From: Euglena gracilis
Taxonomy: Eukaryota
DNA length: 64,000 nt
Direction: 5' to 3'
Assembly (NCBI GenBank): GCA_039621445.1
Contig: CP154954.1
Location: 39,641,816-39,705,815, forward strand
Positions within the stretch are counted from its first letter, which is position 1. Each line of letters opens with the position of its first letter. The notes under the pieces were generated by a model, which saw nothing but the letters and a program-made list of their open reading frames with translations, was not told the origin of the DNA and made no database searches. Below are positions 3,698 through 47,750 of this stretch, one piece after another. The position numbers were made by a program, and so were the translations under genes.

Positions 3698-3757
3698 TCA
3701 AACATTTGTTGTCTGTTTCCATTTGTCGCCTGGGACACATTTACATTCTTCTTCTTT

Positions 3758-18410: not shown

Positions 18411-18638
18411 TGTATAGCTGGTTTAGCGGTGGGCGATGCCCTATGCTTGTCCATGTGGTATTCTTTATCTGTTTGTGGCGCTGGACCGGGTCCCCCAGTG
18501 CATCTCCCTGCATGCTCTGTGCTCTTCTCTGGGATGGGAAAAGGGTTTCTGTTTATTCTTTCAGTTCTTCCAAGGAGCCAAGGCGAAAGCGAAGGCTTTT
18601 GGGAATTGAGAAAGAGGAATAGGGGAATCAGACGTACA
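18411..18638 (+). repeat. 5' LTR of A (deletion-riddled)
   Basis: Aligns by eye to the 3' LTR (GTGGTATTCTTTA, CCAAGGCGAAAGCGAAGGCTTTTGGGAATTG, AATCAGACGTACA) with many small gaps. Confidence 0.8.
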
Positions 18639-18640
18639 CT

Positions 18641-18791
18641 TGGTAGCAGATTAGGTTACGATCCTGGGAATTTCACAGAAGAAAAATAAGGTTACATACA
18701 CTTGGTAGCAGATTTGGTTACGATCCTACACATACTTCACAGAAAGAAAAGCTTACAGGTTTTACACTTGGTAGCAGATTGGTTCGATCCT
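18641..18791 (+). promoter_or_regulatory. Three tandem tRNA-iMet-like primer binding sites of A
   Basis: TGGTAGCAGATT(N)GGTT(A)CGATCCT starts at 18641, 18703 and 18769, each preceded by TACACT. Confidence 0.85.
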
Positions 18792-18980
18792 ACGCTGACT
18801 GGCAGCGGAGGGCCCCTGCACCGTTATCACGGTCGCAGCGTCAGCTCCCGGCTTCTAGTCAACGTCTAAGCAGACGAGCAAGCTCCGGAAGGCTCTGTAC
18901 GGTATTACCCGTTACAGCCCCTCTGGTGCCAGCACAACTGCTTAGTTTTGTGGGTTTTTGTTGTTTTTGCCATCAGAAAG

Positions 18981-21900
18981 ATGAAAAGCACAAGCCCCAA
19001 CCATCAATTCAACTATGCCTTATTACTGGCATCATTGCAAGACATTGACCAAGAAACAGGGGATTGGAAGCTATTATGTGAAAGTGCTTCCATTTCCCAC
19101 GCCGATGAGGCACAATTGGCTCAATTGTCAAGACTGCAACAATTGTCATCATTGACAGTGGTCGGCGATGAGCCCTCCACATCATTGGCCTCAGAGGCCA
19201 ATGCGGCCTCTTCCGCACTCACCTTGCCACAACGGGGGTATTCGCCTCCGTTTGCGGCAATGGTGCAGCTGCATACACCAGAGAGACCCGTGGTGATTCC
19301 GCCACCGGGCTTCTCTGGTGATGGTGGACTAAAAACCCCGTGTTTCTTTCAACCCCCACCCGCTCTTCCACCGGCAAACCCTTACAGAGCTTTGCCACCA
19401 CCACCCGATCTTGGGTGCTATCCGGCACTGCCTTGGCAAGTGGAGACTCGTCTAGTGGTACCGGAATTCTCCGGTACATCCCAACCAATGGATGGCTATG
19501 GGAAGGGCACTGGTGAGCTCCTCACTGCTGAGGATGTGCACGATATCGTTGCTCGGCTTCCAGGGGATCACCCCCTTGTGAGGCAGTTCCACCATGTGCA
19601 ACAATGCGTTGCAGAATGTGCAACCGCACTGAACAAAGTGCTTCAGTTTGATGAGGACAACCAGAAACATGTCTTCAGCAAGCTGGAACACTGCTGGAAT
19701 TACTTGCAGGAAGTTGGCAAATATTGCCAGAGGAATTTTGAAAGTGCGGGTATTGACCTTGCAAACTTTCGGGAAACCTTTGACAAAATGTGCCAACAAC
19801 TCCCGCAGAACTTCCGGCAAATTAGTAAATGCATGCATGAAGCGGAAACGCGGAATGACTCCAAGTTTCTGCACTTGCATGACTCACTACAACACCTATC
19901 GGGACAAATGGAGTCCTGTTCATCCGCGTTGTTGCATTTGCAACAACAGTTGCATGCACGAGATTCCTCGTCTGCAACATCCAGTACTGGTGGATTTGTG
20001 TCTATGGACCATTTCACCACCCTATCCGCAACTTTCCATGAATCGCAACACCCCATTATGCTGTTGTGCGATGAAACGGAAAAGTTTCGGCAATTCCAGT
20101 CACAAGCCAACGATAATTTTGCTCCCCACACGTATGTGCGGCAGTTGGAGGAGCGACTTTCCCGTTTGGAGCAGAAAACCCGCTATTGTGACGCAAATCA
20201 GGTTGGATTATCCAATCTGAGCGCGAAAGTCGCGGTAATGGCGCAACGGCAGGATTCCCTGCGATTGCAGTTGCAGTCCGACATTGGCGGGATTAACTCA
20301 GCCATTGCGGGTTTGCAACAAAGCAATTCCGCACTTTCCCACCGAGTTCCGGACATTAGCAGTATTCAGACTGCTATTGGGGAACTCCAGACCCGGTATG
20401 CATCGGTTTCTACCAAATTAACGGAAATGCAGTCTTTGCCTGCAGGTTCCAGTTCACGGAATACCTAGAAACCTAATTTCAAGGCATTTTCTGAAAAAAT
20501 GCTCGCCGAGAATCAGGAAACCTTGCAAGATTTTTGCAACAGCCTATTACGGCTTGAAGAATCGGTGAATCGGAATGCCCGATCCACGAAAGGTGAGATT
20601 ACCAGGTTGGATGAGCGAATTTCCGCGTTTTTGGATAAGCCACAACCCGGAAATTTGCCCGTGGGTACCACAAACACGTTGTCGGATGACCCTGCACCGG
20701 TTGTATCCACTACCACACCAACCAAGGTGACACCACCTTTGCAGATTCTCTCAAAAGCTGTAAAAGCATTAACGGGACAACTCCAATTACTGGATGAGTC
20801 TCACGGGAAACTTGTCCAAGATGTCACCGGAATATCCGAAAGGATTCTGCACACGGATGACTTTTCCCGTTACCGCAAGCATATTCGCGCTTTGGAGGAT
20901 GAGGTTGACCGTATTTGCGGCCAACTCCAACTCGCTGAGCATTTGCAGCATAGTGTGCATGACTTGTCTGTGGGTCTGGACAATGTGTCCAACCAACAGC
21001 GGGTTTCAAACCGAAATTCGACAGTATGCATTGCCGAAGATGCGCCAAATGTTCCAGATTCGCGTTTTCACAACCCGAATCTAGGTGCACATGCACCACC
21101 ACCACCACCCGTGTCCCGAGTGTCACAACCCGCGATTCCGCGAATTGTGCCACCATTGGCCTTGCCCACAACCCAAACCCAGTTTTCGGATGAATTTCCC
21201 AATAAGGGAACCGAATTTTCGGAAAACACGGCGATTCCGCCAAGTCTCCACCAAGAAATCCATCATTCCATGCTTGTGCGTAGAATGTGCCAAACCTGTA
21301 CACTGGGAGTGGGTCACATGTTGCATGCACGACATACCCCCACACCGGAGTGTCCCCCTATTACGGGTGACCAACAGGGTTTGCGACCGGAGATCCGGTA
21401 CCAGGATTCACCTTCACCAGAAATTTCGCGATTCCGACAAGAATCCGGAAAGGATACGCTTGGTGCTCGAGCGTACCCGGGCCCGAATCCACAGAATACC
21501 ACCGAGGGTCATTGGGTTTCTCAGAAAGACTTCAAAGGCACCATCGCAATCGCGAACAAGGTGAAACCCCAGTGGGACGGTGATCCAACCACATGAAGAC
21601 AGTTTTTCCGGGACTGGGAGTACTACTGGGCATTGAAGGGGCCAACCCAGGACACAAACCCGGAGGTGATCAAGATGGAATTCATCGATTGCCTCCCAGA
21701 GGATGAGAAGGAGCGCGCGCGACAACTCGTCATTCGCTAACGCGTTTCCTTTGATGACCTGGTGGAGCAATACGCTTCCACCAGTTCAAGTTTGGTCGCT
21801 AGGATTACTCTAGAGACCAAGTGGCGGCAATGCGCCCCACCCGATCGCAAGTGGAAGTCCATTGACCAATGGTATGCCAAATGGTTAGGACTTGCTGCTG

Positions 21901-23115
21901 AAGTGGATGAACTCAGTGAAAAGCAAATGCGCGAACAGTTTGACTCTGTTCTCATGCATTTCACGCCTAGCCTCATTAAGGATATCCACCGTGAGGAGTT
22001 GGCGAGTCATCCCATGACTCTTCACCAACGCTGGAATTATGTTTCCAAGCAGTTGAAGCTATCACAGCTTCTTGGTCAGATTCAATCCGCGTATAACGCA
22101 CACCCAACCACTGGATTACCGGCTGGTTCGGTAAACGCATTGCAAAAATCACCGGTTTCACCCACTTCACCCACCACGGGATTGAAAACGCGATACCCGC
22201 GTTCTTCGGACCAAGCCACGGATAAAGTGTGCTTTTTGTGCAACAAATCGGGACATATGTCTCGGGAGTGCCCTAATCCTGAAGCACAAAAGCGTGTTCA
22301 GAGCCCGCGAGGCTCGACCTCATCACCGGGTTTGGGTTCCTCCGCGCTTTCACGCCAATCGGGCAATTCACAGTCATCGGGTCCCCGTTCCGGTGGTATT
22401 AGCCCCCGGATCCCGTTCCGCGATGAGCGGAAACACGGTACCCCTCGGGGTAGGTCACCCGGTGCCCCGGCCAAGAAGCGTGATCCTTATCGCGAGGCAT
22501 CGCGATCGCGTTCACGAAGCGGATCATCCTCTTCGCGATCCTCATTGGGAAAACCCTGATACACCGGTCATGGTCGACGGGATACCCGGTCACCACGACG
22601 GTTTGACGGGAAATCGGGAAACCGATCCCCCCGTTATCCATATTCGCGACACAAATCTCGGTGTTCGCTTTGTGGATCGAGTGATGACCACTCATCCAAA
22701 TGTCCACGTTCTCGTTCTCCGCGCCCTGGCCAACGTCATCGCGGTATGAATCGCGGTGACAAGGGTCATTCCTCCAACCGCCATAAAGTCGGTTTCAAGA
22801 TTTCTTGTTTGGAGGATGACACCCCGGCTTCGGGCAGGGAGGGGGATGAGACCACGGATACCGATTTTGACGAAGCCCGCATGGCGGTGCGCACGTTGAA
22901 ATCCGTTTATACCTCTAAAAGGCCCATAGCCGACTATTCGGCCGGTTCGGACATGGAGCAGGGGAGCCCGAGGTCCGAGGGCACGGACCTCTGGGCTGAT
23001 GAACAGATGGAGGTAGGACCTGATCAACCCTGCCCCCCCCTGCCCATCTGCCTTCCTGGTCGGTACCCGGAAAATTTTCGGGTCCCCCACCCCCCACTCC
23101 AACTTTCCGCTCGGA
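18981..23115 (+). pseudogene. gag: gag of A (coiled-coil-like region, two zinc knuckles, RS-rich tail), with in-frame stops
   Basis: ORFs 18948..20468, 20499..21596, 21762..22559 and 22746..23267 share one frame. Knuckles CFLCNKSGHMSREC and CSLCGSSDDHSSKC. Confidence 0.8.
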
Positions 23116-26100
23116 ATGTTGTGCAAAGTAGGAAAGGGTTCATGGGAAAGCTGGCAAGAAAACGTATTTTCGCCAGACCCTTCACTTTGCTTACCCCCCA
23201 TGGAACTTTTGGTCCAAGCGGAAATCAAAATCCAAAATTTTTGTGCAAAAGTCAAAATTCTCATTGACACTGGTTGTCGCATTGCACCACTTTTTCGGTT
23301 CGGGTTGATACCAACACCCCCCTTGGTGAAAGCCAAGAAGCCGATCAAAATTACGACGGCTGACAACACCCCCATGTGCGGTGGTGACTTGGGATGCATT
23401 TTGGACTTAATCCTACCCCTCATCCCCAAGCACCACTCACACCCCCCCCAACCGCAAAATTTTCCGGATAGCTGGGGATACGAATCCGGAATCCATGGTT
23501 CTGACGTAATTCTGGGATACCCCTTTTTACGTCAGCACCGGCTGGTAGTGGATTGCCACTCCCACGGTTTGCGCACATCACCATTCTCTTCATTGCCCCC
23601 CAAACCCTCATCACCAGTGGCGTTAACCGCGACAGCCACCAATTTTTCCACACCGTTTTCGAAAACTTTTACCCCGTTACCAACCACACCTACCAACGTT
23701 TTCCACACCGGGAGTACCGAGAAAGTTCACCCCCTGCCCATTGACACACCAACTTCCGTTCCCCATGAGGCAGGGCAAGCGAGAAGCGGTACCCCCCTCT
23801 TTCCACTGGGTTACAAGACGAAAGCCCAAAGGCCTGAAGTAATTACGGTGTCGAGTAGTCGCCCAGCTGCACCAATACCCCGTTTTCCACCAGATGTATC
23901 GCTTTCAGATACATCTGTACACCCCCCAGCAGCTACAAAAGCGCATTCCAACTTTTACACACACCACCACCAGACCAACATGCGCGACCAGGACCACTAC
24001 TCCGACACTTCCTTCCAATGTGTGCACTGTAGGAGAATTTACGCCCAGCCAGATTTCGATTGTGGATGTTTAGTCCAAACGCCAAACACTAACACCGATT
24101 TCGCGTACCCATACACTTGGTTGCAGATCGCAATGCACGACCGTACATCAAGTGCTACAACAACGAGGTATTGCCTTGTTGTTTGGGACCGCGAAATCCG
24201 TGTCACACACCTCCACCACCTCCATCTGGCATGTTATGGACTGGGTATGCACCCATCCAACCCATCAACCCTTGGGAATGCCCCTTGGGAGTGTGGATGA
24301 CACACCCTTGGCCTATGTTTGCGGTTCCCTGAATTGCGTTACCGCTCTTCGACCTGCGAACCAGGTTGACACATACGCGATGCGCGTATGGAACGAATTT
24401 AATTTTGGTCAATACCGTATTTTGGAGGAATGGTTCTCCAAAATCGCGGCTTTGGCTGATTCCTTCGATTTGTCGTTGGAAATTGATGCGTTTTCATCAC
24501 AAGCACATGCACGCTTGTCGCGACATTGGTCGCGACACTCCAACACATTCCTTAAAATTTGGGGTGATACGGTGCTTTGGTTGAACCCTCCCCCTAAACT
24601 TCTTCTGGCTGTGGTGTATAAAATCCTCCGCGATGAAGCGCGAGGATCTCTCCTCATACCCGTCAATCCGAATGCGGATTGGTTTCATCAAACTATCCTA
24701 TGTATGTTTTCATTGGTGGGATTTACCCGCTGATGTACCACTATTCGAGGACTTTTGTAGATTATTTTTACCACCTGTTAAAGAAATCATTTTTCGCGTT
24801 TGTTTCTTTGACGCATACGGAATATCCGATTTGCGTGTGCCAAGATACCCTGGTACCAATGGGGATGCCACACCCTCAACGCAGATTTCTGCGGTTATTG
24901 AGAGTGCGGACCAACACCCCAAGTCTGCTGACTATTGTTCGCGTATTACTCGCGAATTCCATGGTGTACTGGATAACCCAGTTTACGCCTGCGACATCGA
25001 CCCCGCGATTCGCGGTCTGTTCGGTGTTTGCAAAATCGAGCTCAAGGATGGCGCTAAGCCCATGCACCGGAAATTCTTCCGTTGTTCGGTTAAACGCGAA
25101 CAAGCTCTCAACGAGATGATTGAGAAGCTCATCCAGCGGAAGTGGATTATCCCTTCCAAGAGCGAATGGACATCACAAGCTTTTGTGGTGCCCAAACCCG
25201 CTGACCAGTCTGGTCAGAACAAGTGGAGATTGGTGCTGGATTACCGGTACCTGAACTCCCAAACGAAGGATGACCCCTTCCCGTTACAGCTGATCGAGGA
25301 TTTGATCACCAAACAATCGGATAACAGGTTGTGGTCAATCTTTGATCTAGAAGACGGTTTTCATCAGATGTATTTGCACCCTGATTCACAACCGTACACG
25401 GCATTCGTGACATCCAAGGGTGTGTACCAATGGACGGTACTCCCTATGGGTGTTAAGAATGGCCCAGCCATGTTTCAACGCATGATCCAGTGGGTTTTGC
25501 GCGAATTACCGTTTGCTCTGGTGTACATCGATGATGTACTGGTGGGAACCCAACCGCCATCCGCGAAATCGGGCGAGGATATCCTCGAACCGCATTATCG
25601 CGATGAGCGGGCGGTATTATCCGCGTTCAAAAAGCATGTGCTTTTTGTCAAGGGTTCCAAAATGCACCTGTTTCGCAAAATTATTAAGTTTTGCGGGCAT
25701 ATCCTGAGCAACGGGCAGCGTCAAGCCGCACCCAGCAAGATGGAGGCCATTAAGAAATGGACTCCTGAGGTCATTAAGACCTTAACGCATTTAAAGGGAT
25801 TTTTGGGATTAGCCCAATACTACGCGATTTACATGAAAGATTTCGCGAAAATCGCGGTACCCCTAACCCGACAACTCAAAAATCGGACACCCGATAACGC
25901 AAAAGTCATTTGGGATGACCAAATGCGCGAGGCCTTAAATAAAATCAAGGACTTGCTCGTCGAGAACGTGGTTCTCGATATCGCGGATCCATACAAACCG
26001 TACGTCCTGGAGGTCGACAGCAGCGATTACGCTGTTGGCGGGGTTCTTATCCAGCATAATGCGGAAAATGAACTCCGACCTGTGGCTTTCTTCAGCAGGA

Positions 26101-26228
26101 AGCTACAGGGCGACAACGGGAAAGGACAGGTTAAACGGAGCGTTCGCGAAAAGGAGACATATGCCATTGTGCTAATTCTCCAGAAATTCCGCAGCTGGAT
26201 AGCCAGCAGCCTGGTCCAGATACTGGTG
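23116..26228 (+). pseudogene. pol: pol of A, 5' part: aspartic protease, Cys/His segment, MTase, RT, RNase H (cut by element B)
   Basis: ILIDTGC; WLNPP; RLVLDYRYLN, FDLEDGFHQM, LPMGVKNGP, YIDD; EVDSSDYAVG, PVAFFSRKL, EKETYAIV. Frameshifts near 24080 and 24690. Confidence 0.95.
24410..24815 (+). other. Dam-like / DIRS-MT-like amino-methyltransferase domain within A pol
   Basis: IDAFSS motif, NPPP at 24584-24595, LLIP..ADWF. One frameshift near 24690 relative to A'. Confidence 0.8.
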
Positions 26229-27315
26229 TGACGACCGTTTGAGGTCGACCGCCGGGCGGCGGAGTTTTTCCCTTTTAGAAGGCCTTTTGAGGGCGGTTTT
26301 GCTCTAATTTTAAGGCTTTCTAAAGATTTCCATTAAAATTCCCTCTCCCAGGGCGCCCATGGTTTGGTTGTGCAAGGAGAGAGATTGAGTGATGCTAGGT
26401 ATTCCCAAAGGGTGATTTTGGGTTTTTAGCACAATTTAAGCTTTTTATGCATTTCTCCTTTGGTTTTGAGGGAAAATGTTGGATTTAGTGAGAGCGCTTG
26501 CAAGCGCTTGGAACAGAATTTTAAGAGATTGGCGCCTGAGTTCCTGGAGTTTTTGCAGGGGTTTGCAAAGCTCAATAATGATGGAATTCAGCATAATTTA
26601 TCAAAATCAAGGGGGGAAACCTTGATTTTGACTTTGGTTGGTTGATTTTGATGCAATGGGCAAGAATTTGGGATTTGAGAGCGCTTAGGAATCAGCGCAC
26701 TCAATCCTAAATTTAACTGCCCATCAAGGGCATCAAAATCATTTTCTTTTCACAGGGTTTTCCTCTTTACCTTTTACACCATTGTACTTGTTGTGGCAAT
26801 TACATCCAATTACAATCAAGAATTGAGTTTGGAATTTCAATTGCAATGGAAGATCAACAAAATCAATCATTTGAAGAAGGAGAGGTTTGTCTTCCCCCCA
26901 CCTCATCTGTGGGAAAAGGGGCAGGGGGGTGGGTCTCTTCAACTCAGGCAACCACAGGCCATTTTTCACCCCAAAACCCCCTTTTTGGCCCAGAAACTGT
27001 GAGAAATGACACCCAGGGGGGGGTGTTGGCTCTCACTGGTTCAGCTGAGCAGGGAGGGGTTGAAACCCCAAAGGCACCCCCCTTGGAGATCCCAGTGACA
27101 CCCCCCTCAGGGGTCGGGGAGGGTCCACTGGGAAGTTCCTCCTTGGAAATGATGGCCCAGTTTCGGCCACAGGGGGGGCCAGAATGGGAAAAAATTTCCG
27201 ACACAAGTCGGCTCGAGGAGCCAAAAAACGACCCTACGCCGGAAACTGGCCCGGGGCGGGGGTTTCCGCTTCACCCCAGCGCTGCCGGGGGACACGGCAG
27301 CACGGGTGTGAAAAA
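26229..27315 (+). repeat. 5' LTR of B (1087 bp)
   Basis: Direct repeat of 38149-39236, with roughly ten differences seen by eye. Confidence 0.97.
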
Positions 27316-30300
27316 TGGTAAGCAGAGGTTGATCCTTCAGCCTTCTGTCGGAAATTTTGGGTTTGAAATCCCTGCTCAGAATGTTTTCTTTGATGATCAG
27401 CCAATGGCCCAATCTCAGTTGGCAAATCTGACGATTGGAGTTTCGGGGAACAGGGAGTTGGGACCCGAAACCAGTTTATCTGAACTCAGAACCCCCACAA
27501 ATATGGGACAGATGTTGGAATTTCAGGGTGGGGATGGCCAGGTTGTCATTTCCAACCAACCGTGTTTTCCAGAGCCTTTTTCAGGGGTTTTGCCTTTGCA
27601 AAATATGGGGTACGGTTTTGTGCTGCCTGAGTTGCAACCTCTCCCAGACTTTTCATGGGTACAAAATTTAGGGAATCTGCCATCATTACCCGCTTTTGCA
27701 TTGCCTTTGCCTCCAGCTCAACCAGTTTCTTCAACACCAGCCCAAGAGCCGGTGGCACTTTTGCAGTTTTCCCAACCATCCCAGGTAGATGGGCTGGCGA
27801 AGGAAACGGGAAGTGCCTCGGCAGGGCAGGGGGGTGATAACCCCAGCCCAGTTTTCTTTGAAAAGCAAGCACAGGTCAATGTGCTGGGCTTAAACGATAA
27901 TAATAACTGGGACAGCGGCGAACGGGTCAGAGCAGAAGTCGAGCAGGCAGAGGAAAACCCGAAGGACCAGCCCAGCTCTACTTCTGCTCGACGACCCCGA
28001 ACACCGGCTTCATCACCAGGCAGTGATGAAGTTCAGCAAAAACGGCTGCACCGTGAGGTTGATCACGGTCAGCCAGCAGCTGCTGCAGCCCCCCAGCCTC
28101 CTCATATTTTCATCGAGGGGGGTGAGGAGGAGGTCCAACCCCCAGCCTATGAAAGTTCTGAAGCCACCCCCAGGGGGGGTTCACAAAATCAGGGATTTGA
28201 AGACCCCTGGCGGCAATTTTTACAAAGTAACAGAGACCTCCAGTGGACTGTGCAGCACCTGACTTTTCGGGTTTTGGCTTTGGAAAAAGCCAACGAAGAG
28301 TGGGTTCTGCAACAGCAGCAGCAGCAGCAACAACCCCCCGCAGTCGACATCCACCTGGTGGAGCACATGGCTGCACGAATCGAAGAAACGGCCAGGGCTG
28401 ACTGCCTCCATATTTTTGAACTTTTTGAGAAAAAATGTGAAGCCCAGGTGCAAATTTCTGTGCAAAAAATTGACGCACAGGCACTTGAACTTTTTGTTGG
28501 GCAGGAAAAAAGTTTTGAGGAAAAACTGGCCCAGCAGTTTTCTTCGAGCCGTGATCAGTTTTTGGCCCTGAGGCAGGAATTTTTACGAATTTTGGACAAC
28601 CTGCCACAGGAAATTTTGAAACAAGTGCAAAATCAGGTGGCTGCCTTTCCAATTAAGGATCTCGTGCTTGAAAATTTTCAGCGGTTTGCTGAGAATTTTA
28701 AAGCCGCCCAGCCAGCTCAGGGGGGGGAGGCAGAAACTCTCCAGGAGCTGGCCGTTGTCGCTGCCAAAATCGTTGAAGTTCAGGCTGACCTGGTATCGCT
28801 GCGTAGTACGGTACAGGGCCAGGCTCAGCAGCTCCAGCAGTTCGCTGATTATGTTCGCCAGCTGGGTGAGCAAAATTGAGCAATGAATACGGCCCTCCAT
28901 GGTTTTGGTGGTGGTATTCAGAAACTGCACCAGAATATTTCAGATGAAGTAGGGAAACGACACTCAGAAATGCAAAAACTGTTGACGGATTGTCAGCAGA
29001 ATTTTCAGAGTGTTCATCAGCAGATTTTTTCCCAGGAGAAAAAATTTGGTGGGCTGGTGGAGGAATTAAGGCAGGGACTTGCAAAAGTTGGGGGGAACAC
29101 TTTCGAGTTGCAGAAAGTGTTGCAGGATTTACAAAAAAATGGACCCGTACACCCAACTGCAGAACCGAGAGGAGTTTTGCAGAAAATTTCTGACATGTGG
29201 TGGCTGCGGCAGGGCAGCCAGCAGCCCCTACACCCAGTGGAGCTGCCACAGCCTGGGCAGCAGCTGGCCCAGCAGCCCGTCGTCCAGCTAGCCCAGCAGC
29301 CTGGCCAGCCAGCAGGCCAGTCGCAGCCTGCTCACGGGCTGCCAAGGGGGCTGGGCCTGCCGTCGGCTGGACAGCAGCAGCCCCTGGGGCAGCCTTCCAG
29401 CTCACTGGCCAGCACGGTGCCCAGTGCTGACCCAGCATTTTCAGATCAGATTATTTCTCAGAATAAATCTGCAAGTTCAAACATTTCCCCTCCCTTAGTT
29501 ATTGAGGGGGGATTTGTTTTGGAGGACACACAAGATACGGCAGTGGTTTCTTCTGTGTCATTGTGTGTCCCCCCACATGTTCCTGCAGCCCCTGCTTTCT
29601 CGATTAGGCCCATCGGGACAGGGGGGGCTGCAGCCAACCCAGGTAACGGGTTGGGTTTTCCTTTTATCGGTGACCCAGTAGCTTTTGAAATTTTGCAGGG
29701 AGGTGCTAAGCCCTATTTTGATGAAGCGGGCAGCATTTCCTGGCAAGATTTTGAAGTAGATTGGAATCTTTACTGGGATAGGTTGACATCAGGGAAACCG
29801 TATTCTGATTTGCAAAAGCTGCAGGTTTTTGAGGCATGTTTAGGACCCAGATTAAGGGAGGAAATCAGGCTCTATCGGTTGAATGGAGCTAAATTAAGTT
29901 ACCCCACCATATTAGCCCAATTCCAGAACCGTTATGCCTCGAGTAAGGGGCTGACGGCTCGGAAAATATGGCAGGAGGTAACTATGGTAAACGAAGGAAA
30001 AATTACCCGGGCTGATCTGCAAGAATTTTGGATTAAATTTTGCAGTGCCTGGCACCATGTAAAGGATGCCACAGCTGGGGAGGCTCGGAGATTATTTTTG
30101 GAAAGAATTCCTCCTTTTTTAAGCAAGTTTTGCATAGAAGAGGAGGATAACCGAGCCCGTAAACAACCCATTGTCAGGCTCACAGGGATACCAAATCCCA
30201 CGGTGGATGGGATTAAAAGGAGTGTGAGCCAGATCACAGGGGGTATTGATCCACGGAAAGTGGTTATCAAAAACCCTGGTGCCATTTGCCTTATTTTCAG

Positions 30301-38137: not shown

Positions 38138-38148
38138 AAGGGGGGGAG
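38138..38148 (+). promoter_or_regulatory. Polypurine tract of B
   Basis: AAGGGGGGGAG immediately before the 3' LTR. Confidence 0.9.
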
Positions 38149-39236
38149 TGACGACCGTTTGAGGTCGACCGCCGGGCGGCGGAGTTTTTCCCTTTTAGAA
38201 GGCCTTTTGAGGGCGGTTTTGCTCTAATTTTAAGGCTTTCTAAAGATTTCCATTAAAATTCCCTCTCCCAGGGCGCCCATGGTTTGGTTGTGCAAGGAGA
38301 GAGATTGAGTGATGCTAGGTATTCCCAAAGGGTGATTTTGGGTTTTTAGCACAATTTAAGCTTTTTATGCATTTCTCCTTTGGTTTTGAGGGAAAATGTT
38401 GGATTTAGTGAGAGCGCTTGCAAGCGCTTGGAACAGAATTTTAAGAGATTGGCGCCTGAGTTCCTGGAGTTTTTGCAGGGGTTTGCAAAGCTCAATAATG
38501 ATGGAATTCAGCATAATTTATCAAAATCAAGGAGGGAAACCTTGATTTTGACTTTGGTTGGTTGATTTTGGTGCAATGGGCAAGAATTTGGGATTTGAAA
38601 GCGCTTAGGAATCAGCGCACTCAATCCTAAATTTAACTGCCCATCAAGGGCATCAAAATCATTTTCTTTTCACAGGGTTTTCCTCTTTACCTTTTACACC
38701 ATTGTACTTGTTGTGGGCAAATACATCCAATTACAATCAAGAATTGAGTTTGGAATTTAAATTGCAATGGAAGATCAACAAAATCAATCATTTGAAGAAG
38801 GAGAGGTTTGTCTTCCCCCCACCTCATCTGTGGGAAAAGGGGCAGGGGGGTGGGTCTCTTCAACTCAGGCAACCACAGGCCATTTTTCACCCCAAAACCC
38901 CCTTTTTGGCCCAGAAACTGTGAGAAATGACACCCAGGGGGGGGTGTTGGCTCTCACTGGTTCAGCTGAGCAGGGAGGGGTTGAAACCCCAAAGGCACCC
39001 CCCTTGGAGATCCCAGTGACACCCCCCTCAGGGGTCGGGGAGGGTCCACTGGGAAGTTCCTCCTTGGAAATGATGGCCCAGTTTCGGCCACAGGGGGGGC
39101 CAGAATGGGAAAAAATTTCCGACACAAGTCGGCTCGAGGAGCCAAAAAACGATCCTACGCCGGAAACTGGCCCGGGGCGGGGGTTTCCGCTTCACCCCAG
39201 CGCTGCCGGGGGACACGGCAGCACGGGTGTCAAACA
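38149..39236 (+). repeat. 3' LTR of B (1088 bp)
   Basis: TGACGACC...GTGTCAAACA, followed by the TSD. Confidence 0.97.
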
Positions 39237-41103
39237 GGTGTTGACGGATCATGAGAGCCTTCAACACTGGTATACCGAGGACCTGAACAAGGCCATGTCA
39301 TCAGTTGGCAGACGATGCCGATGGCATGAGTTCTTGAGCCAGTTTAACCTGGTGGTAGTTTATACCCCAGGTCATACGCAAAAAGTGGCGGATCCTCTCA
39401 GCCGAGCCCCCTGGTATTATCCTGGGGACCCGGATGAGGGTGATGCGACTATTCATGGCAGCCATGGGGCTGACCAGTTCGCACGTCGATCCGACGCTGT
39501 GGACAACATGCTCGATTCACTACCCGTTTCCCGGGTGTATCGCAGCATTGCCATTTCACCATTGCGTGGAAGGCGCCGGCGTGGACGCACTGCCGGACCT
39601 CGTCGCATTACGCGTACGGAAACTCCTACCCCCCTGTTTTTCCGCGAATGGGATTATTCGCGTGACCCTGTGTATAGTACCATTGTGAATAGACTCCGTA
39701 ATGGTGAGTCCATAGAGAATTACTCTCTAGCACCATTGCGACTTTTTTTCCGGAATGATTCTGGTTATAAATATTGTATACCCCAAGACCTGGTTGATGA
39801 TGTGATTTTGAGCTATCACAACCATGGTCACCCTGGGGCCCCCAAACTTCTTTCACTGGTGGGTCGCAGATATTGCACAACCCTGAGTGAAAAAGATTTA
39901 TATTCGCGCTGTTTGCAAATTTCGCAGCGGTGCCCAATTTGTCAGGCTGTGAAACCGCGCACAGGTACCCCCCCTGGTACGATGGACTTTTTCCCCGTAC
40001 CACCGGACATTTTTACGTCCCTCTGCATGGATTTTCTCGAACTCGAACCTTGCAAAGGATCAGATGACAAAATTTACGATTACGTTTTCGTTGTCGTCTG
40101 TCGGCTGAGTGGTACATAGTAGCAATTCCATGCCGGAAAGCAGGGTTGACAGCCCAAATTTTGGCATCCATATTCCTGGAGAAATGTATCTGCTTAATGC
40201 GTTTACCGAACGAAATCGTGAGTGATCAAGATCACTTGATCTCTTCGCGGTTTTTCACAACTTTGTGCGGTTTACTCGGTATTGAGCAGCATGTTTCCAT
40301 TATATACCGCCCGAAAGGCAACGGTGGAGCTGAGGCAGCCGTGAAATCCGTTGTCAATATGCTACGCCTTTCACTGGCTGACTCGGGTAAGAATTCGATA
40401 CCCATTCTTCATTGGTGTTTATTTTAAATCAATACCTTGCCAGGGTTGGTATTACCACACTCACCGTATAAAATTGTTTTCGGACGAGACCCTCCGGCCA
40501 TAGGGGATATCCCCTCGGAGAGACCCGCCCAAAGTAGTGTCAGCTGTGAAACGTGGTTTGCAGAAGTGGAATCAACTCCGCTCTGAAGTTCAATCACGTA
40601 TCACAGAAATTCATTCCAACAAACGGAAATCGTTTTTACAAAATTTCAACACACCTGTGTATAGTCCAGGTGACCGCGTGTGGGTACGGAATAACTGCAC
40701 CCGCATGCAATCTTCCAAGCTAGACCCTCTTTGGCTCGGCCCATGCGAAATTTTGGAGAGGTTAGGTAGTAGCGGGCGATATAAAGTTGCATTGCCCAAC
40801 GGGATTGAGGACGTCCATATGGACGATTTCAAACCATACCTAAACCCCCCTGACGGAAAAGCTATCCCCTGCTTATATTTCAAGCCCCGTTCCAGATTAC
40901 CTGAAACGGACGACTTTGTGGTTGATAATATAATAGACCACAAGGTCGACAGGGGTGTGCACTACTAGAAAGTTCGCTGGAAAGGGTATGGGCCAGAGGA
41001 GGACACCTGGGAGCCAGCATCAAGTTTTGTTGGATACGTCCAACAGGATTGGAAGCTGTGGAACAAGCGCAATAACATAGACATAAACATAAACACTTTC
41101 TGA
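39237..41103 (+). pseudogene. pol: pol of A, 3' part: RNase H end, integrase, chromodomain
   Basis: LTDHESL, VADPLSR, HNHGH..CPIC, IVSDQD, KGNGGAE. Chromodomain FVVDNIIDHK..Y*KVRWKGYGPEEDTWEP. Several stops and frameshifts. Confidence 0.93.
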
Positions 41104-41295
41104 AACGATTTCGTTTTGGAGAATGTGTGTGTTTTATGTGAATTTTTCGCGTTTATACCCCCCCCTGCACTGCATCTTCTGTCTTTCTCACAGAGTTTTT
41201 GATAAGGATAGAAGCATCTCCTTTTTCAGTGCCTAGCACTCAAAGCGACTGACAACAAGGTTATCCTTCGTTGTCGTCGTCGTTCGGGTAGCATC

Positions 41296-44200
41296 ATGCT
41301 GCCTTGACGCGGACCAGGACCAGGTCCAATATGGCCGCAGCCTCCGGGCGCGCCATACCCCCAGTACCCTCAGTATGGTGAGGTCCCGATTCCGGGTGCC
41401 CCACATGCTGAAAGGGTTCCAGCCCCCGTATTCGCCGCGGCTACCAGCAGCCGGTCCGCATATGCGGTACCAGATCCATCAGCCGTCCATCAGCCGGCAC
41501 CCCAGCCACCAGTGCAGCGCAGATTGCGGCTGCCCCCGTATGCGGGAGAGATGATCTTCCGCACTACGGAGACGTTGGAGCGGGCGATGCGTATGTGCGC
41601 ACACCCTCCAACGGAGCCCTTTATGCAAGCCCTTTGGGATGCATACTGCGCTCAGTTGTTGGTGGTAGCCAACACCCCTGTGGCTCATTGGTGTCCCTGT
41701 GGTCAGGCCCTGATGACAGGGAGACGGTGTTTCTCGTCGGCATTCGATTCCGATTCGAGCCTGGCGAGACCATGATGGACCTGGGCGTGTATGTGCCGCC
41801 CATGCTGCAAACGCAGACGCCGGTGGGATCCCACACCGTGCACATGCGTGAGCACACGCCCCCACCGGTAGGTGAGGCTGTGCATGTCCCACCTGGGATG
41901 ACGAGAATATTTGCTCGCCCGCCCTCGCCGCAGCGAATGCCGCCGCACGTGCCGCCAGCGGAGCAATTTGCCCCGCAGTACGCGACGCACGCGGACTACC
42001 CACGTGGCGCACGCGTGCTCCCATCCGGACAGTCGGACGTGCCCCCTGAGGCATACGTCCAACACATGTTCACGCACTGGATGCCAGAGGCATCACCGGT
42101 CGCCCCTGCCCCTGGAGTTGAGCCACGGCGGCAGGTGGAGCCCATAGTGGTGGAGGATGAACCTCCCCACCGTGTGGCAACCCGACCGCCCAGTGCACCT
42201 CCTGTCCAAACCGGGGATGTCCCGCGTCGGCAGGAGGCTCCCTACTACCACATGACACCTCCGGGAACCGAGCAGGATGAACTTGCTCGGCATTTCCTGC
42301 AGGAGCCAGTATTCGCGTCTGAAGAGCACCGGGCGAGGTATTATTCCTGGCTGGCTGCCCTTCAGGGCCGTGGATACACCCCATACCATCCGTACAAACC
42401 GCAGCTGCGGGTGGCAACCCCGGTATTACCCGGTGAGCCCCCGGCAGGAGCGGCAGGATTACCTGCCACCCTGAAGCGCTATAGGGCTACGGAGGACCTT
42501 ACCCCACAGCCCAGGCGACCCACCCCAGGGGACGCGGAAGGCGGTATGGCAATGCAGGTGGAAGCCAGCCAGGATACCCTGGCTAGACAACCAGCGGCAG
42601 AGGCACAGGCAGCAATGAGCCGTCCTGTTGCCGCAATGCCACCGCCGATCCCTCCGGTATGGAAGGAGCCGCGACCCACTACGCCGAAACCAAGCCCACG
42701 CCAGGCTCCTAGCCAGCGCCCAGCCACGCCATCACCGCGACGTGCAGCGGAACGGCAAGGCCCCTCCCCAGAGAAGGAATGGGAAGGTACCGAACCGACT
42801 GCTGCCGCACCGAGCGCCCGACCTGCTGGTATTCACCAGACGGGGAAGGACAAAGGTAAGGCTGAGGGCAAAGGCAAGGGAGAAGGCAAAGGTGTGGCCG
42901 GCAAAGGCAAAGGTGAGGGCAAGGGTAAGGGTACAGCCCGTGAGGAGGAGGAAGAACCAGCAGAAGTCCTCTCGGACTTTGAGCATATGCTCAGGTTCAA
43001 GGAGGAGCTGGAAGACGAAGGCTGGCGAATGCAGCATGATTACCATGTTGCAGGAAACCGCCCCGTCACTCCTCCAGAGACAGTCATCGATGTGGTATTA
43101 CACCACAGCGAGAACAGAGTCAGACTATTCCATTACGGAATAGATCTGTACGCCTTCGAAGGTGAAGGTGCAGACCTTTGCTGGATGCCCAGCCGGGCTT
43201 TTGGGAGCTATGGTTTTGGCTGGGATACCCCTGCCAGAACTGGGGTCTCTTCAGCGACTCCACTGGTCGCAGTTATCTGCACCAGTTGGGACTGGCATTC
43301 CGGGACCAGCAGGTGTTGGCCCGGATGCTGAAGGCCTACCTCGAATGTATCCATTCAGTAGGACCCCTCGGAGTCCAGTGGAGATACTTTCCGCTGCACC
43401 CCGAAGTAGGACGCCTGATTGAGGTGTTGTGGTGCAACATCCTCCAGGTGCGGCTGGTGAGCCATTACGGCTCAACCTTCCGCGTTCAGCGCGTTTCCCT
43501 GGCTTACCCACAGAGGTATGACCTCTGTTGTAAGTATTGCCTGCAGTAATTTCCTGTCGACTTCTGGGGATTCGGCTTGCGTGGAAGCCTTCCACCGCCT
43601 CGGGATAACCCGGGCCTGGGGATGGGACGCCGCATGCTTATGCATGTGTGCCGCGACGCCCCGGATGTCCAGGGCAGAAGTCGCCGCGTCCACAAGCAGC
43701 GTATTTTTATGCTGCAGCAGTTCTGGTGGCGAGCCTGGACCACCTACGTCATGGACGTGTATATACGTCTCCGTGACCCCCAGGACGATGGACCTGGTAT
43801 GGAAAGTCTGCCACCAGACTACGGCGACCCCGTTGAGGGACCTCGTCGTCGTCGGGTCATCGCCGACCTGCGCCCCAACTGGCACCTGGCCGGTATCGAC
43901 CTGGAAGAACATTTGAGGCGACAGTTTGGCGGTACCCTCGACTGGGAGGTATTCCTCCAGCTGATGAATTACCCGAAGGCCATCCTCGACCTGGGTATGC
44001 CGTTTTTGGCATGCGTGCAGGAGTTCGAGGAAGGGTTTTTCGAGGTCTGGGAAGACACGCGTTACCGCGGATTCCTGGGCCCGAACAGGCCTGCCAACGC
44101 CTGGGTGCAGCCATCATGGCCACCACCCTGGCCCAACCGCCCCAGCAGCAGCACGCTGGCCTTTTACAGGCTGGCGGATGCTCAAGGATGCCGATGGCAC

Positions 44201-46620
44201 CCCGACGATCCTCGTTCACTCGAGGATCTGCGCGCCTTCATCGCCCCGGAGGATGAACCTCTGGCGCGAAGGAGACGTGAGGCGTCCGTCGCTTCCACCA
44301 CCGCGATTCCGCGGCGGGAGGAACGCGAACGCAGCCCCTCCGTCACCATTCTGGAGGCAGCGCCGCCATCTCCGACAGGAACGGCAGTGTCCTTCGTCTC
44401 TGCCCCGCGAGTGGCAGGGGAACGATCAGTTTCCCCGGCCCCTGCGACGGCTCCCGTCTGTCCACCGACAGGTGGAGACGAGGAACTCCCCCAGGAGGAA
44501 GGCGAGAACGTCGAGGATATCCTCTACGCTGCTCTGCCTACTCCGGCACAGCCTCGGCCAGACGAAGCACCCATGGGGGATACACCTATGGCTGCAGCGC
44601 CTGTGTCGACGGCTGAGCCTGAAGCCGTGGTGACTGGTGTGGTCGTCGAGGATATCCCCGAGGAACCCGCCAGCCCCACAGCACGAACCTCATTAGGAGG
44701 CCGTGTACTCGGCGCCGTGGTCACTGGCATTACTGCCGTGGCTGCTGCACTAACGCCACGAGGTGGAGGCGTAGCATCAAGCTCCGCCGCCGAGGTCGTG
44801 GAGACACCAGATGTCGGTGTCCCCGCACCCCCATCTCCGGCACCAGTGCAACCACCATCAGGAGATGAACGCCAGCCGACAGAGCCATCTGTCGTAACGG
44901 CTACAACGGAGGATCAACCTCCAGTAGCACCTGCGCCAGCGGTTGTGGAGGATCAACCTCCTCGGCCAGACGTCGAAATGGAAGTGGAGGAAATACCCCC
45001 ACGACCACCGACACCGCGCAGACCCTCTGACACCCCGACGACAATGGGAGAGTTTCCGGGAGTGTCAGGGCCTGTGGAAGCACCGGTTCCGGTGACAACC
45101 ACAGTCCCACGCCCCCGCGGGAAGGATGAACCTGCTCGACGGACGCCGGCTGAACAACCCCAGGAACGCGTACCAACGCCTCGGAGCGTCATGCGCGATC
45201 CAGCGGTCATGATGCCCGCTTCGCCCTGACGACAATCGTCTGCTCCAGCGAAACCTGCTCCTGATACCAGGAGTAAGCCGCAGCCATCGCCTCCTGATTC
45301 CGGGAGTGCGAAGCCGAAAGGAGGCAAGCCGGGTGCTGCACCCTGTAAGCCCCCTGTCCAAGGCGGTGATGGGAAACCACCACCGAAAGGTGGCGCTGGA
45401 GGCCAGACCGGCGGACAGCCAAAAGGCCCTACGACATTGCACGACTATTCGGCCGTGCCATCGTCCGGGTACGGCCAGAGCAAACCGAAAGGTAAGGCTC
45501 GTGGTCGACAGACCCAATCTTCCGCCGGTTCGACGGATGAGGAGCAGGATGAACCTGCTTCACCTCCCGTGTCTGCGGATGCCCAGCTCTGGGCTCAGGA
45601 TATCCTGACCAGCCTAGGCACCGTGGAACAAAGGACGAGGAAGCTGGCTGCTATTCGGCACCAGAAATGGTCACTGAATCGATGGATTTAGCCCCTCTTC
45701 GTCCGAGGAGAACCTTTCCACTATGTCCCGGAACACACCTGGACATTTTGGAACAGGCGCTCACCCCAAGCACTGGCAAAGTACTTCGGTGAGGACTGCG
45801 TGTTGGATTTCCAGCACGGCACGTCCTTTGCCTGGACGTGCACCGTGTGCCACCATGTGCGGCACAACCAGCCACTTGTGCATGTGTGCAAGCGGCAGGT
45901 GCAATCCACGACGTTCCATCACAGGGCATTTGTGCCGAACTGTGTGGCGCTCGTATGTGGCGAGTGCCACACAGCGACTTCCGAAAGGTAGAAAGCTACC
46001 GCCACACGGGAATGGCCCGTGAGTTCCAGATCGACGCTGGGGCAATGCGCCTCGCCGTCGAGGAACACGCCAGGGTAAGAGTGCCTTACCTCTGGACTGA
46101 TGGCGACTGGGATACACAGGTTTACCCCCTGTTCTTCAAGCGTCAGCATGGCGGATACGCCTTGCCACTTTGGCCTCCTGAAGAACACGATTTGGTGGAC
46201 TTCAGAGGTTGGTTGGCGGCTGTATTACGGCCCCATACCGCAAGAGCTCGGACAGCGAGGTGGGCGTATGACGTCAACTTCAAGCAGACCCCGGGGATGC
46301 CCCCGCAGGTGCCTGCGAATCACCCCCGGATGAATTACATCATCTGGCCGGTGATGCTGCCCAGAATTTTCTGGGAGCACCTCCAACGGTACCTTCAGCA
46401 TCATGCTGACCGTACCAGGGAGAAGCTGCCGGACAGTTGGATCAAGGAATGGGAGACCCCTTCCTTTGATGCCAACGATCCGGAGCTCAACATCATTCGG
46501 AGTGAATCAGCTCCACCACGTTCCCCACGCCAACTGGAGTTGGTCGAGGACCCATTAGGGGACCCTCAACACGACTACTGGCGTGAGGTACGCGAACGCC
46601 CAGCCAATAGAGGCAGGTGA
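41296..46620 (+). pseudogene. Large extra ORF of unknown function between the integrase and 3' LTR of A
   Basis: Same-strand ORF pieces 41512..41775, 41595..43331, 43577..45229, 45437..45691 and 45838..46620 tile the region. Pro/Glu-rich linkers separate Trp/Tyr/His-rich blocks. Confidence 0.65.
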
Positions 46621-47430
46621 GGTGTCTGTCAGCGCCAATGCGGCGTCTTTCAGAACCCTCGTCAGGTATTCGCCTGAACCCTTGTTCGGGTATTCGCCCG
46701 AGCAACCCTTCGAAGACCCTTTGCGGTATTCGCCGCTAGTAAGTTCCCACCGGGATGCTGCCATGTGCAGGATTCCGTGCGCATGCATGCACATCCCCCT
46801 CCCCTCTCCCCTCTCGCGGGCTTGCGACACGCAGCGCACAGGGCCGAAGGCCTCTTTTCTTTCCTTTCCCTTTTTCTTTTTGGCCGTTTGAGGCCTTCAG
46901 GCTGCCAGGCAGCACCTTTTCTGGCCTAAGCCAACCCCCCACTCCTCTCTACTTTCCCCCCGGGACAAATGCTGTCGCCGGCAGTTGGTTTTGTAGAGTA
47001 GGACTTTTCTTTTGCGTGGTCAGGTTTGACTGGCCATGCGCCCTGCCCAGTTTTGACTGGTCAGAGGCCCCCTCCTTCCACACCCTCCCCATGGGTATTC
47101 CCGGAATGCCCATGGACCAACCCCAAGTGCCTTTAGCACACCCAAACTGGGTGGATGGGTTTGCTTGGCAAGGAAACCTGCCAGCCCCATTTTCACCAGT
47201 GGGCTATAGTATACTATACACCCATAAGCCACCGCAAAGTAGGTGAAACCATTTTGCTCGTTTTGGGCTTTTGGGTCCCCCTCCTTTCCGCCCCCCTTTT
47301 TGAGTGGACCCCTGTGCGACGGAAAGGGCCCCTGTGGATGCGCCAGGGTGCACCTCCCACAGACCAGGTCTGTGTCCGAAAGGCCTGTGGCCAGAATGCC
47401 TGGTCCAAAGAGGAAATCGGGCATAGCCCT

Positions 47431-47440
47431 GGGAGGGGGA
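47431..47440 (+). promoter_or_regulatory. Polypurine tract of A
   Basis: GGGAGGGGGA immediately before the TG of the 3' LTR. Confidence 0.85.
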
Positions 47441-47750
47441 TGTGTACCAGGCGTATGCTTCTGTCCCCTTCCGTTGAGGAAGTTAGGATGGAAGCAGATC
47501 CTATTAGGATTTCCTAATGGGTGCCCCTTCTCTCTCCACAGGTGGTATTCTTTATTCTGTTTGTCTTCCTTTTCTCCAGACCGGACTTGGATATCCAGTC
47601 CGTCCTCCCTGCATTGCTCTGTGCTTTGCTTCTTGGGAAGTGGGAAAAGGGTTTTCTGTTACTCTGATTTTCAGTTCCCAAGTAAGTGCGCCAAGGCGAA
47701 AGCGAAGGCTTTTGGGAATTGGGAAAGGGCAATTGGGAATCAGACGTACA
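47441..47750 (+). repeat. 3' LTR of A (310 bp)
   Basis: TGTGTAC...GACGTACA, after which the satellite resumes. Confidence 0.88.

Follow-up and report, generated by a model that had tools for sequence, protein, structure and literature searches.

A 64,000-nucleotide stretch of the Euglena gracilis genome (contig CP154954.1 of assembly GCA_039621445.1, forward-strand positions 39,641,816 to 39,705,815), here called the window, contains two long terminal repeat (LTR) retrotransposons of the chromovirus type, one inserted in the other and both lying in a tandem array of a 29-bp satellite. The outer element, A (in this copy, A1), carries a Dam-like amino-methyltransferase domain in its pol region; the inner element, B, carries a compact C5 DNA methyltransferase (DNMT) domain, and in both the integrase is followed by a chromodomain. 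The explanation that we favor, with a probability of about 0.8 for the whole, is that the window holds nested, dead copies of families in which the chromodomain would tether integration and the DNMT would methylate DNA, and that the Dam-like domain of A is probably non-catalytic.

The nesting can be read from the insertion site itself. B spans 26229-39236, inside the RNase H region of A1. Its LTRs (1087 and 1088 bp) are 99.3% identical, differing at 8 of 1087 aligned positions (Kimura two-parameter distance, K2P, 0.0074), and the element is flanked by a GGTG target-site duplication; once B and one GGTG are removed, the reading frame of A is continuous. The window also contains a second, truncated and internally deleted family-A copy, A2, that matches A1 at 92-97% nucleotide identity in four blocks (95.6% over 4930 aligned nucleotides) and is unbroken across the B site, with A1 26228 corresponding to A2 10165 and A1 39241 to A2 10164. 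Because of this continuity, A2 serves as an empty-site control for the B insertion. The duplication, the empty site and the restored frame identify the nesting as a real integration, and B is much younger than A: the K2P of 0.0074 between the B LTRs compares with A LTRs that are at most 82% identical and with the stops and frameshifts accumulated in A1.

A1 itself spans 18411-47752 on the plus strand, from a TG start to an end reading GTACA(CT) at 47750/47752, and retroelement sequence fills all of the space between the two arms of the satellite. Tandem Repeats Finder (TRF) describes both arms by a single 29-bp unit, GCGGCCGAAGCAAGCAAATGGCTGCTAGT, on the same strand (15154-18114 and 47754-52259). 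An initial annotation of this DNA had placed B in A and A in the satellite, with the same limits for A, and the LTR pairs, the GGTG duplication, the A2 empty site and the domain matches bear this out. It had also called the satellite rich in CpG and GGCC, and this holds in part. The GGCC density is 25.2 per kb in the left arm and 31.7 per kb in the right, against 2-6 per kb in the elements, and CpG occurs at 63-68 per kb, compared with 56 per kb in the window as a whole; however, the observed/expected (o/e) ratio of CpG is only 0.84 in the left arm and 0.76 in the right, and therefore the satellite is CpG-dense without CpG enrichment beyond its base composition. A literature search found no paper on this 29-bp satellite.

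The position of A1 in the satellite may have an explanation other than targeting, with no special role for the chromodomains: where most of the genome is repeats, insertions could land in repeats by default, and those in satellites and dead elements could survive because they escape selection. We rate this as a serious competitor, somewhat short of an even chance. The window consists almost wholly of repeats, among them A1, A2, B, a pair of LINE-like elements and two tandem arrays; A1 is the sole insertion inside the satellite, A2 ends ~1.6 kb away with unrelated sequence in between, and a GC-rich long interspersed nuclear element (LINE) that lacks a chromodomain lies ~2.8 kb past the other, right-hand end of the array. 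Against this stand the chromodomains of both nested elements, which keep the conserved aromatic positions, and the established guidance of chromovirus integration by chromodomains to gene-poor or heterochromatic regions (cited in bioRxiv 10.64898/2026.05.21.726589).

By its sequence, A is a chromovirus of the Ty3/gypsy type in which a Dam-like domain separates protease (PR) from reverse transcriptase (RT). Its LTRs run TG...CA(CT), and the order is PR, RT, RNase H, integrase and a C-terminal chromodomain of family PF00385 (Table 1). Depending on the alignment, the LTR pair is 70-82% identical, with an indel of ~80 nt, and the purine-rich tract GGGAGGGGGA precedes the 3′ LTR. The 5′ LTR is followed by a primer-binding-site (PBS)-like TGGTAGCAGA, presumably similar to the 3′ end of initiator tRNA-Met; self-BLAST aligns 18632-18729 with 18694-18793 at 82.7% identity, such that the PBS-like segment ACACTTGGTAGCAGAT..GGTTACGATCC is present in three tandem copies. 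Comparison of A1 pol by tblastn with an intact relative, P0092, passes through frames 1, 2 and 3 in turn; residues 23-138 of P0092 align to 23719-24078 in frame 1, over the end of the protease region, which has no Pfam protease match at E<=0.01. The gag frame contains in-frame stops at 20466, 21594, 21738 and 22557, the integrase has frameshifts and a stop at 40425, and a TAG at 40966-40968 interrupts the chromodomain. With at least four in-frame stops in gag, and three frame changes and two stops in pol, the A1 copy is dead. Between protease and Dam-like domain there is also a conserved Cys-rich motif, YQC.HCRRI....DFDCGC, located at 23900-24080 in A and at residues ~105-135 of P0092; this may be a zinc-binding linker.

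In B, the order PR-RT-RNase H-integrase-chromodomain appears once an internal inversion is read back, and the sequence is then that of a chromovirus with a C5-DNMT domain upstream of the protease. The inverted segment, 3.8 kb long, splits the DNMT domain at its catalytic Pro-Cys motif and splits the integrase as well. Read on the minus strand from 35322 downward, it contains the C-terminal half of the DNMT (35322-34780), the protease (LVDTGAQ), the RT (YIDDIL), RNase H and the zinc-binding N-terminal part of the integrase (32063-31485); the integrase core resumes on the plus strand from 35323. At the DNMT break the window reads ASPP followed by NPRPRDF, whereas P0002, 85% identical in this domain, reads ASPPCNVYSTAYNPRPRDF; 22 nt are lost, removing the catalytic Cys (the rest of its codon) and seven more residues. 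At the integrase break, where relatives read TGAKLAK.., 8 nt and three residues are lost. We considered whether the minus-strand segment is a second, reverse-inserted element and rejected this, as the three pieces complement one another exactly and together make up a single element. In its present form the B copy of the window is dead, and given the stops and frameshifts of A1 and the inversion of B, neither copy can act now.

Other copies of B are un-inverted, with the Pro-Cys motif kept. When contigs of four public sequencing runs were aligned to 30500-36500, giving 5678 and 5548 pieces at 90-100% identity on 6 kb, contig joints in all four runs connected opposite strands, from 31484/5 to 35321-35323, and so had the un-inverted order. 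In one contig the joint contains 22 additional letters, and loose contig ends, translated by hand, read PPCNIYYTAYN and GFTGAKAAKQMLLHA. Most contigs differ from B by small indels. Copies of the B family with an intact PPC thus occur in the four runs.

An assembly artefact, in a region as repetitive as this one, could in principle produce either the nesting or the inversion. The A and B families are repeated and polymorphic in the runs, as the numbers of contig pieces indicate; no contig among the matches listed bridges the window's own inverted junctions, which by itself speaks neither for nor against the inversion, and the evidence for the inversion consists of the assembly and the junction deletions. 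We nevertheless consider an artefact very improbable: the 4-bp duplication is exact, the empty site is in frame, A2 supplies an independent empty-site copy, and losses of 22 and 8 nt at the junctions are typical of break-and-rejoin rather than of a read mis-join, and are a better fit to it than to mis-assembly.

Methyltransferase-fold domains of the two families

The domain of B is recognized through its relatives as a compact, divergent C5-DNMT. The two halves separated by the inversion give no PF00145 match by themselves; the corresponding stretches of 11 of 11 relatives do, with a best E of 1.7e-7. The copy in the window has motif I and ENPR, the latter in the C-terminal half together with DYCQF..KPTRFW, and lacks the motif IV Cys at the break; in the relatives Pro-Cys is invariant (11/11). 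An alignment of 47 rows, comprising 45 homologous domains and the two halves of B, has LDLFsGtGSV, aSpPC, ENPR and DYCQF..KPTRiW in common. Across the 11 relatives, which are 43-54% identical to the first sequence, 44 columns including motif I, PC and ENP are invariant, and the domain occurs in 47-50 of the 91 related proteins examined. A profile of the DNMT domain searched against the PDB reached DNMT1 catalytic domains at E ~1e-3; a single-sequence PDB search with the DNMT stretch of one relative returned only matches at E 0.38. After its KPTR block and before the C-terminal helix, the module also has an invariant C...C...H (C167, C172 and H185 in the first row). These residues may form a small metal-binding insert that takes the place of a large target-recognition domain.

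The Dam-like domain of A belongs, on its predicted structure, to the class I S-adenosylmethionine (SAM) methyltransferase fold, with N6-adenine methyltransferases as its nearest neighbors. The AlphaFold model has a mean predicted local distance difference test score (pLDDT) of 84.6, and at least 93 per 10-residue block over residues 61-191. VIA-align Z scores are 10.4 for PCIF1 (root-mean-square deviation 3.1, 130 aligned), 8.9 for METTL5, 8.5 for T4 Dam, and 8.3 for both M.TaqI and EcoDam; because Z values near 8 are common in this fold class, they indicate the fold class only. Foldseek against the PDB gave no match at E<=0.001, the best being PCIF1 at E 4e-3. In sequence, Dam-like homology extends to 307 library proteins at E<=1e-3, with 38-49% identity in many of them.

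What distinguishes the A domain is its catalytic tetrapeptide. The aromatic residue of this motif is commonly credited with stacking on the target adenine, and among 169 aligned domain hits NPPF is the commonest form of motif IV (61), followed by NPPW (19). In A1, however, the motif is NPPP (24584-24595); A2, whose domain is 89% identical to that of A1 in amino acids, also has NPPP, and P0092, the closest full-length relative, has HPPL. A canonical [ND]PP[FWY] is found in 2 of the 17 nearest relatives, as against 23/46, 43/75 and 18/19 in more distant score bins, and the variants in the A clade comprise NPPP, NPPI, NPPV, NPPL and HPPL. In contrast, 16 of these 17 relatives retain the D-x-F of a SAM-motif-like DAF[AS]S, which in A1 reads IDAFSS. 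The loss of the aromatic residue makes it more likely that the A-clade domain is a non-catalytic or altered module than a standard writer of N6-methyladenine (6mA). The initial annotation had called this domain a writer, which is doubtful given NPPP and the rarity of the canonical motif among the nearest relatives.

These features bear on a second alternative, in which the methyltransferase domains are functionless passengers, decaying relics of one old capture, and the pairing of chromatin reader and DNA-modifying writer has no meaning. The A clade lacks the canonical tetrapeptide, both window copies are broken, and the presence of DAM among B relatives is patchy (DNMT only, DNMT-DAM and DAM-DNMT arrangements all occur); heterologous expression of DAMs, moreover, has given no 6mA (bioRxiv 10.64898/2026.05.21.726589). 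These points are outweighed, in our view, by the 44 invariant columns and wide occurrence of the DNMT, by the PPC retained in other B copies, by the conservation of the Dam-like domain in many proteins together with its confidently predicted fold, and by the purifying selection and de novo CG methylation described for other retrotransposon DNMTs (PMC5890265). We therefore regard the passenger explanation as unlikely.

The two families differ in CpG content. At a GC content of ~50% in all sequences compared, CpG o/e is 0.49 in B, with values of 0.59 and 0.43 in relatives' DNA (L001 and L002), as against 0.91 in the left part of A1, 0.92 in its right part and 0.98 in A2. The halved CpG of B fits a long history of cytosine methylation, and the contrast fits different cytosine-methylation histories of the A and B families. 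One could extend this to a reading in which the families occupy opposite niches: B would live under, and perhaps write, CpG methylation, and A would use its domain as a non-catalytic scaffold that recruits a host adenine methyltransferase or binds modified DNA. The model for such a scaffold is METTL14, the inactive partner of METTL3, in which the tetrapeptide is EPPL and the aromatic residue is lost. The A clade resembles METTL14 in keeping the methyltransferase fold while losing this residue; METTL14 differs in belonging to the MT-A70 family, in acting on RNA and in working as a heterodimer, and the comparison illustrates a possible scaffold role without implying kinship. We put the opposite-niches reading forward as speculation that is probably wrong.

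A probable single methyltransferase-bearing lineage and its published relatives

The RT-RNase H regions of A and B are 39% identical. In a quick maximum-likelihood tree of 35 RT-RNase H rows (midpoint root, support by the Shimodaira-Hasegawa-like approximate likelihood ratio test, SH-aLRT), A1, P0092 and the 24 B-type rows are united in a single clade (support 100%), separated by a long branch from nine other Ty3/gypsy rows. Within this clade the domain order varies: DNMT-PR-RT in B, P0002, P0004, P0005 and others; DNMT-DAM-PR-RT in P0003, P0006 and P0008; PR-DAM-DNMT-RT in P0020-P0022; and RNase H-DNMT-integrase in P0035. The order in A, PR-Dam-RT, places the Dam-like domain as in the PR-DAM-DNMT-RT type. 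Many rows of the tree are N-terminally truncated, which makes the absence of a domain uncertain. One clade with several DNMT and DAM orders looks like shuffling and loss within a single methyltransferase-bearing lineage rather than independent captures, and casts doubt on the proposal of the initial annotation that a methyltransferase was captured twice.

The chromodomain of B is identified by similar reasoning. Its PF00665 (E 1.2e-4) and PF00385 (21.7 bits) matches each fall under their cut-offs; the integrase and chromodomain end of B is 57% identical over 320 amino acids to P0012, which carries PF00385. Among transcript-derived sequences, eukprot:EG_transcript_113 is 59% identical to B pol and has Dam, RT, integrase and chromodomain, and fragments of EG_transcript_9304 and _11683 match at 86-93%; we take these names to denote Euglena gracilis transcripts, and the matches point to E. 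gracilis or a close relative as the host.

Classical chromoviruses of plants, fungi and algae, for example the centromeric CRM elements, insert in satellites and heterochromatin and nest in each other. A and B share with them the order PR-RT-RH-INT (with RH for RNase H and INT for integrase) and the C-terminal chromodomain, and differ in carrying DNA methyltransferase-fold domains; to our knowledge, classical chromoviruses carry no DNA methyltransferase. Dam-like domains of the same family, PF05869, are also encoded by DIRS retrotransposons. In contrast to DIRS elements, A is bounded by LTRs, encodes a chromodomain and an integrase of the DDE type, and lacks a tyrosine recombinase and split or inverted repeats.

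The closest published systems come from Euglena itself. According to a recent preprint, DAM-carrying LTR retrotransposons occur in many eukaryotes including E. gracilis, and a group of E. gracilis elements named EpiLTRs combines DAM, DNMT and chromodomain, in a genome where CG sites carry 5-methylcytosine (5mC) almost by default (Fernandez-Moreno et al., bioRxiv 10.64898/2026.05.21.726589). The retrotransposon DNMT module of Euglena is described there as sister to DNMT4, not DNMT3, and the aromatic residue after Asn-Pro-Pro as mostly conserved in DAMs. A agrees with these elements in being Ty3/gypsy-like, with LTRs and a Dam-like domain in pol; B agrees with EpiLTRs in its DNMT module and integrase chromodomain, and its DNMT is 47-54% identical to those of DAM-carrying relatives. 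The role proposed is also the same, namely engagement of the host landscape of 5mC and 6mA. However, EpiLTRs have both methyltransferases in one element, whereas A has no DNMT and B no DAM; P0002, the nearest relative of B, is likewise DNMT-only, as far as its sequence reaches. A also departs from the published DAMs in having NPPP where the aromatic residue is mostly conserved, and in the strength of its domain match (E 1e-4 to 8e-4 against Pfam). This is weaker than the threshold of the preprint's screen, which began from DAM hits at E<=1e-5 (bioRxiv 10.64898/2026.05.21.726589). A screen that starts from DAM would not list a DNMT-only element such as B, and it may have missed the weak-scoring clade of A.

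Outside Euglena, DNMTs have been found inside retrotransposons of dinoflagellates and a charophyte, where they are linked to de novo CG methylation (de Mendoza et al. 2018, PMC5890265). SymbioLINE-DNMT, SymbioDIRS-DNMT3 and KnitGypsy-DNMT3 resemble B in having a C5-DNMT within the pol polyprotein and in a heavily CG-methylated host, and self-methylation of new copies has been proposed for them (PMC5890265). They differ in host lineage and in DNMT module, and B has an integrase chromodomain in addition, a term with 0 occurrences in the main text of that paper.

It follows from both sources that the idea of a retroelement-encoded epigenetic toolkit is largely in print and is not new (bioRxiv 10.64898/2026.05.21.726589, PMC5890265). 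Our literature search found no paper on a DNMT-only Euglena chromovirus besides that preprint. Three things are possibly new: B as a DNMT-only sibling of EpiLTRs, a Dam clade in A that lacks the canonical NPP[FWY], and the CpG o/e of B set against the near-unity values of A.

Layout of the window and neighboring repeats

The coordinates of the features are given in Table 1. The GC content of the window is ~50-58%, except for a block of 70% GC at 54-62 kb. Three of its five retroelement copies (A1, A2 and B) have a methyltransferase domain; at E<=0.001 none was found in the LINE-like element at 3515-7518 or in the GC-rich LINE at 55030-59655. This latter LINE sits between 575-bp direct repeats (52745-53319 and 62500-63060) that are 85% identical. 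A 27-bp tandem unit, TGGGCCTGAAAAGGCCCCCCCAGCCAC, lies at 3541-3701, at the start of the open reading frame (ORF) of the LINE-like element, and an array of 102/228-bp tandem units lies at 1164-1662. Rfam and tRNA scans of the 64-kb window returned no matches.

Table 1. Positions of the elements, their parts and adjacent repeats within the 64,000-nt window
Feature	Position	Strand	Basis and remarks
A2, second family-A copy, truncated and internally deleted, Dam-like domain with NPPP	8452..13522	-	alignment to A1
Satellite, left arm	15154..18410	+	TRF period 29, 102.6 copies, 74% matches; degenerate from ~18115
A1 5′ LTR, 230 bp, starts TGTATAGC	18411..18640	+	alignment to 3′ LTR
A1 PBS-like TGGTAGCAGA..GATCC, three tandem copies of ~62 bp	18641..18793	+	sequence, self-BLAST
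A1 gag-like frame with CCHC zinc knuckle	18870..22559	+	PF00098 26.1 bits
A1 protease region (LIDTG) and Cys-rich linker	23017..24078	+	ORF translation; tblastn with P0092
A1 Dam-like amino-methyltransferase domain	24086..24709	+	PF05869 22.2 bits, E 1.3e-4
A1 RT and start of RNase H, up to the B insertion	24684..26228	+	PF00078 E 3e-25, PF17919 E 1.3e-24; tblastn with P0092, frame 3
B target-site duplication GGTG, left	26225..26228	+	alignment; A2 has a single copy
B 5′ LTR (TG...)	26229..27315	+	LTR alignment
B gag-like frame	26846..30862	+	ORFs; in-frame TGA at 28877 and 30860
B C5-DNMT, N-terminal half (LDLFAGTGS ... ASPP)	31304..31484	+	sequence, alignment; ends at left inversion breakpoint
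B inverted segment	31485..35322	-	ORFs; PF00078, PF17917, PF17919, PF17921; junction sequences; relatives P0002, P0012 and P0009 for comparison
B integrase core (DDE part) and C-terminal chromodomain (~36071-36230)	35323..36268	+	PF00665, PF00385
B 3′ untranslated region (UTR) tandem repeats, 66-68 bp and ~85 bp, with G8-G10 runs	37576..37957	+	TRF, sequence
B polypurine tract	~38137-38148	+	sequence
B 3′ LTR (...CA)	38149..39236	+	LTR alignment
B target-site duplication GGTG, right	39237..39240	+	alignment; A2 empty site
A1 rest of RNase H and integrase (H2C2, core, SH3-like)	39241..40902	+	PF17921 E 1.5e-7, PF24626 E 4e-7; tblastn with P0092
A1 chromodomain	40903..41103	+	PF00385 27.1 bits on 40969-41100, cut-off 25.1
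GC-rich (60%) 6.3-kb stretch with Pro-rich plus-strand ORFs, between A pol and 3′ LTR	41104..47440	+	ORFs
A1 3′ LTR, ~312 bp	47441..47752	+	sequence, alignments; start approximate within 1-2 nt
Satellite, right arm, same unit	47753..52259	+	TRF period 29, 153.9 copies
LINE, 70% GC, with APE endonuclease, RT and RNase H	55030-59655	-	domain matches (PF03372 for APE endonuclease, PF00075 for RNase H)

Some parts of the two elements have features of their own. The stretch 41104-47440 has no Pfam match and no self-similarity within the window. A 66-amino-acid piece of it matches the C-terminal tail of eukprot EG_transcript_9304 at 86% identity, and on this match we read the stretch as a dispersed repeat of unassigned kind, either the 3′ region of A itself or a further insert. 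A homologue search with its ORF 43550-45229 gave two partial matches only, and an ESM Atlas search with ORF 45793-46620 gave an uninformative best score of 0.79.

In B, a PBS-like TGGTAAGCAGAGG at 27316 directly follows the 5′ LTR. The gag-like frame has no Pfam match; its first ATG (26846) lies ~470 bp inside the LTR, and the ORF continues past the end of the LTR and through the PBS. This 160-codon gag start recurs in the 3′ LTR of B, where it is in frame into the RNase H of A. Both in-frame stops of the gag-pol frame (28877 and 30860) are TGA, and could be CGA-to-TGA changes at methylated CpG or sites of read-through. The G8-G10 repeats of the 3′ UTR are a possible G-quadruplex-forming sequence. 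A metagenome scan for B relatives found two short loci whose flanks were not useful, and runs labeled, as a guess, 'RNA?' contained 0.44-0.59 of the sampled words, which we do not count as evidence of transcription.

Proposed history and its meaning

The locus could have arisen as follows. An array of ~7.7 kb of the 29-bp satellite would have received a chromovirus of family A, in which protease and RT are separated by a Dam-like domain, and this copy would then have decayed. Later, B, with its compact C5-DNMT upstream of the protease, would have integrated into the RNase H region of A with a 4-bp duplication, and would have suffered, or been born with, a two-break inversion of 3.8 kb that lost 22 nt and 8 nt. 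At the level of the families, the integrase chromodomain would tether integration to repressive chromatin, favoring satellites and other elements as targets, and the pol-encoded DNMT would methylate CpG on new cDNA or on the integrated copy. The pairing proposed in the initial annotation is thus supported in part, for the families, in which chromodomain and methyltransferase-fold domain occur together in pol, but not for the dead copies of the window; the competition that it envisaged between the A and B families is not supported.

Several observations weigh against this explanation. The enzyme activities of the DNMT and Dam domains are predicted ones. The PF05869 scores of A1 (22.2 bits), A2 (20.1 and 22.6) and P0092 (19.6) all lie under the 28.1 cut-off, and many of the database relatives are probably translated decayed copies, whose motif variants may in part be random damage. 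Expression of eukaryotic DAMs in dam-deficient E. coli brought no rise in 6mA, and therefore even DAMs with the canonical motif are unproven as writers (bioRxiv 10.64898/2026.05.21.726589). The satellite nesting is one insertion (n=1) in a window that is nearly all repeats, and no target-site duplication of A was found, the flanks reading GAAGC and CTCGC/CGCGG, both satellite. The two LTRs of A1 share at most 82% identity, a divergence well beyond that between A1 and A2 (95.6% identical) and not accounted for by a simple model of age; subfamilies may have recombined, or conversion may have occurred. The ratio of nonsynonymous to synonymous divergence (dN/dS) between A1 and A2, 0.6-0.77, is near neutral and uninformative on selection. 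Finally, the low CpG of B may reflect a sequence bias of the family instead of methylation, and transitions between A1 and A2 affect 6.3% of CpG positions and 4.0% of other C/G positions, a mild excess.

Retrotransposons that carry both a chromatin reader and a DNA methyltransferase of their own represent a direct engagement of the host epigenome by mobile elements. Such engagement has already been published for Euglena, green algae, dinoflagellates and charophytes, and the contribution of this locus is modest but concrete: a clear case of nesting for which an empty-site copy serves as control, an EpiLTR sibling that has a DNMT only, a Dam clade that lacks the canonical motif, and a two-fold difference in CpG within the same stretch of DNA. 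If the opposite-niches reading were true, A would hold the first pseudo-methyltransferase retained by a retrotransposon, and this would account for the failed heterologous DAM assays. The non-canonical Dam clade and the CpG contrast yield cheap, testable predictions for long-read methylation data that already exist.

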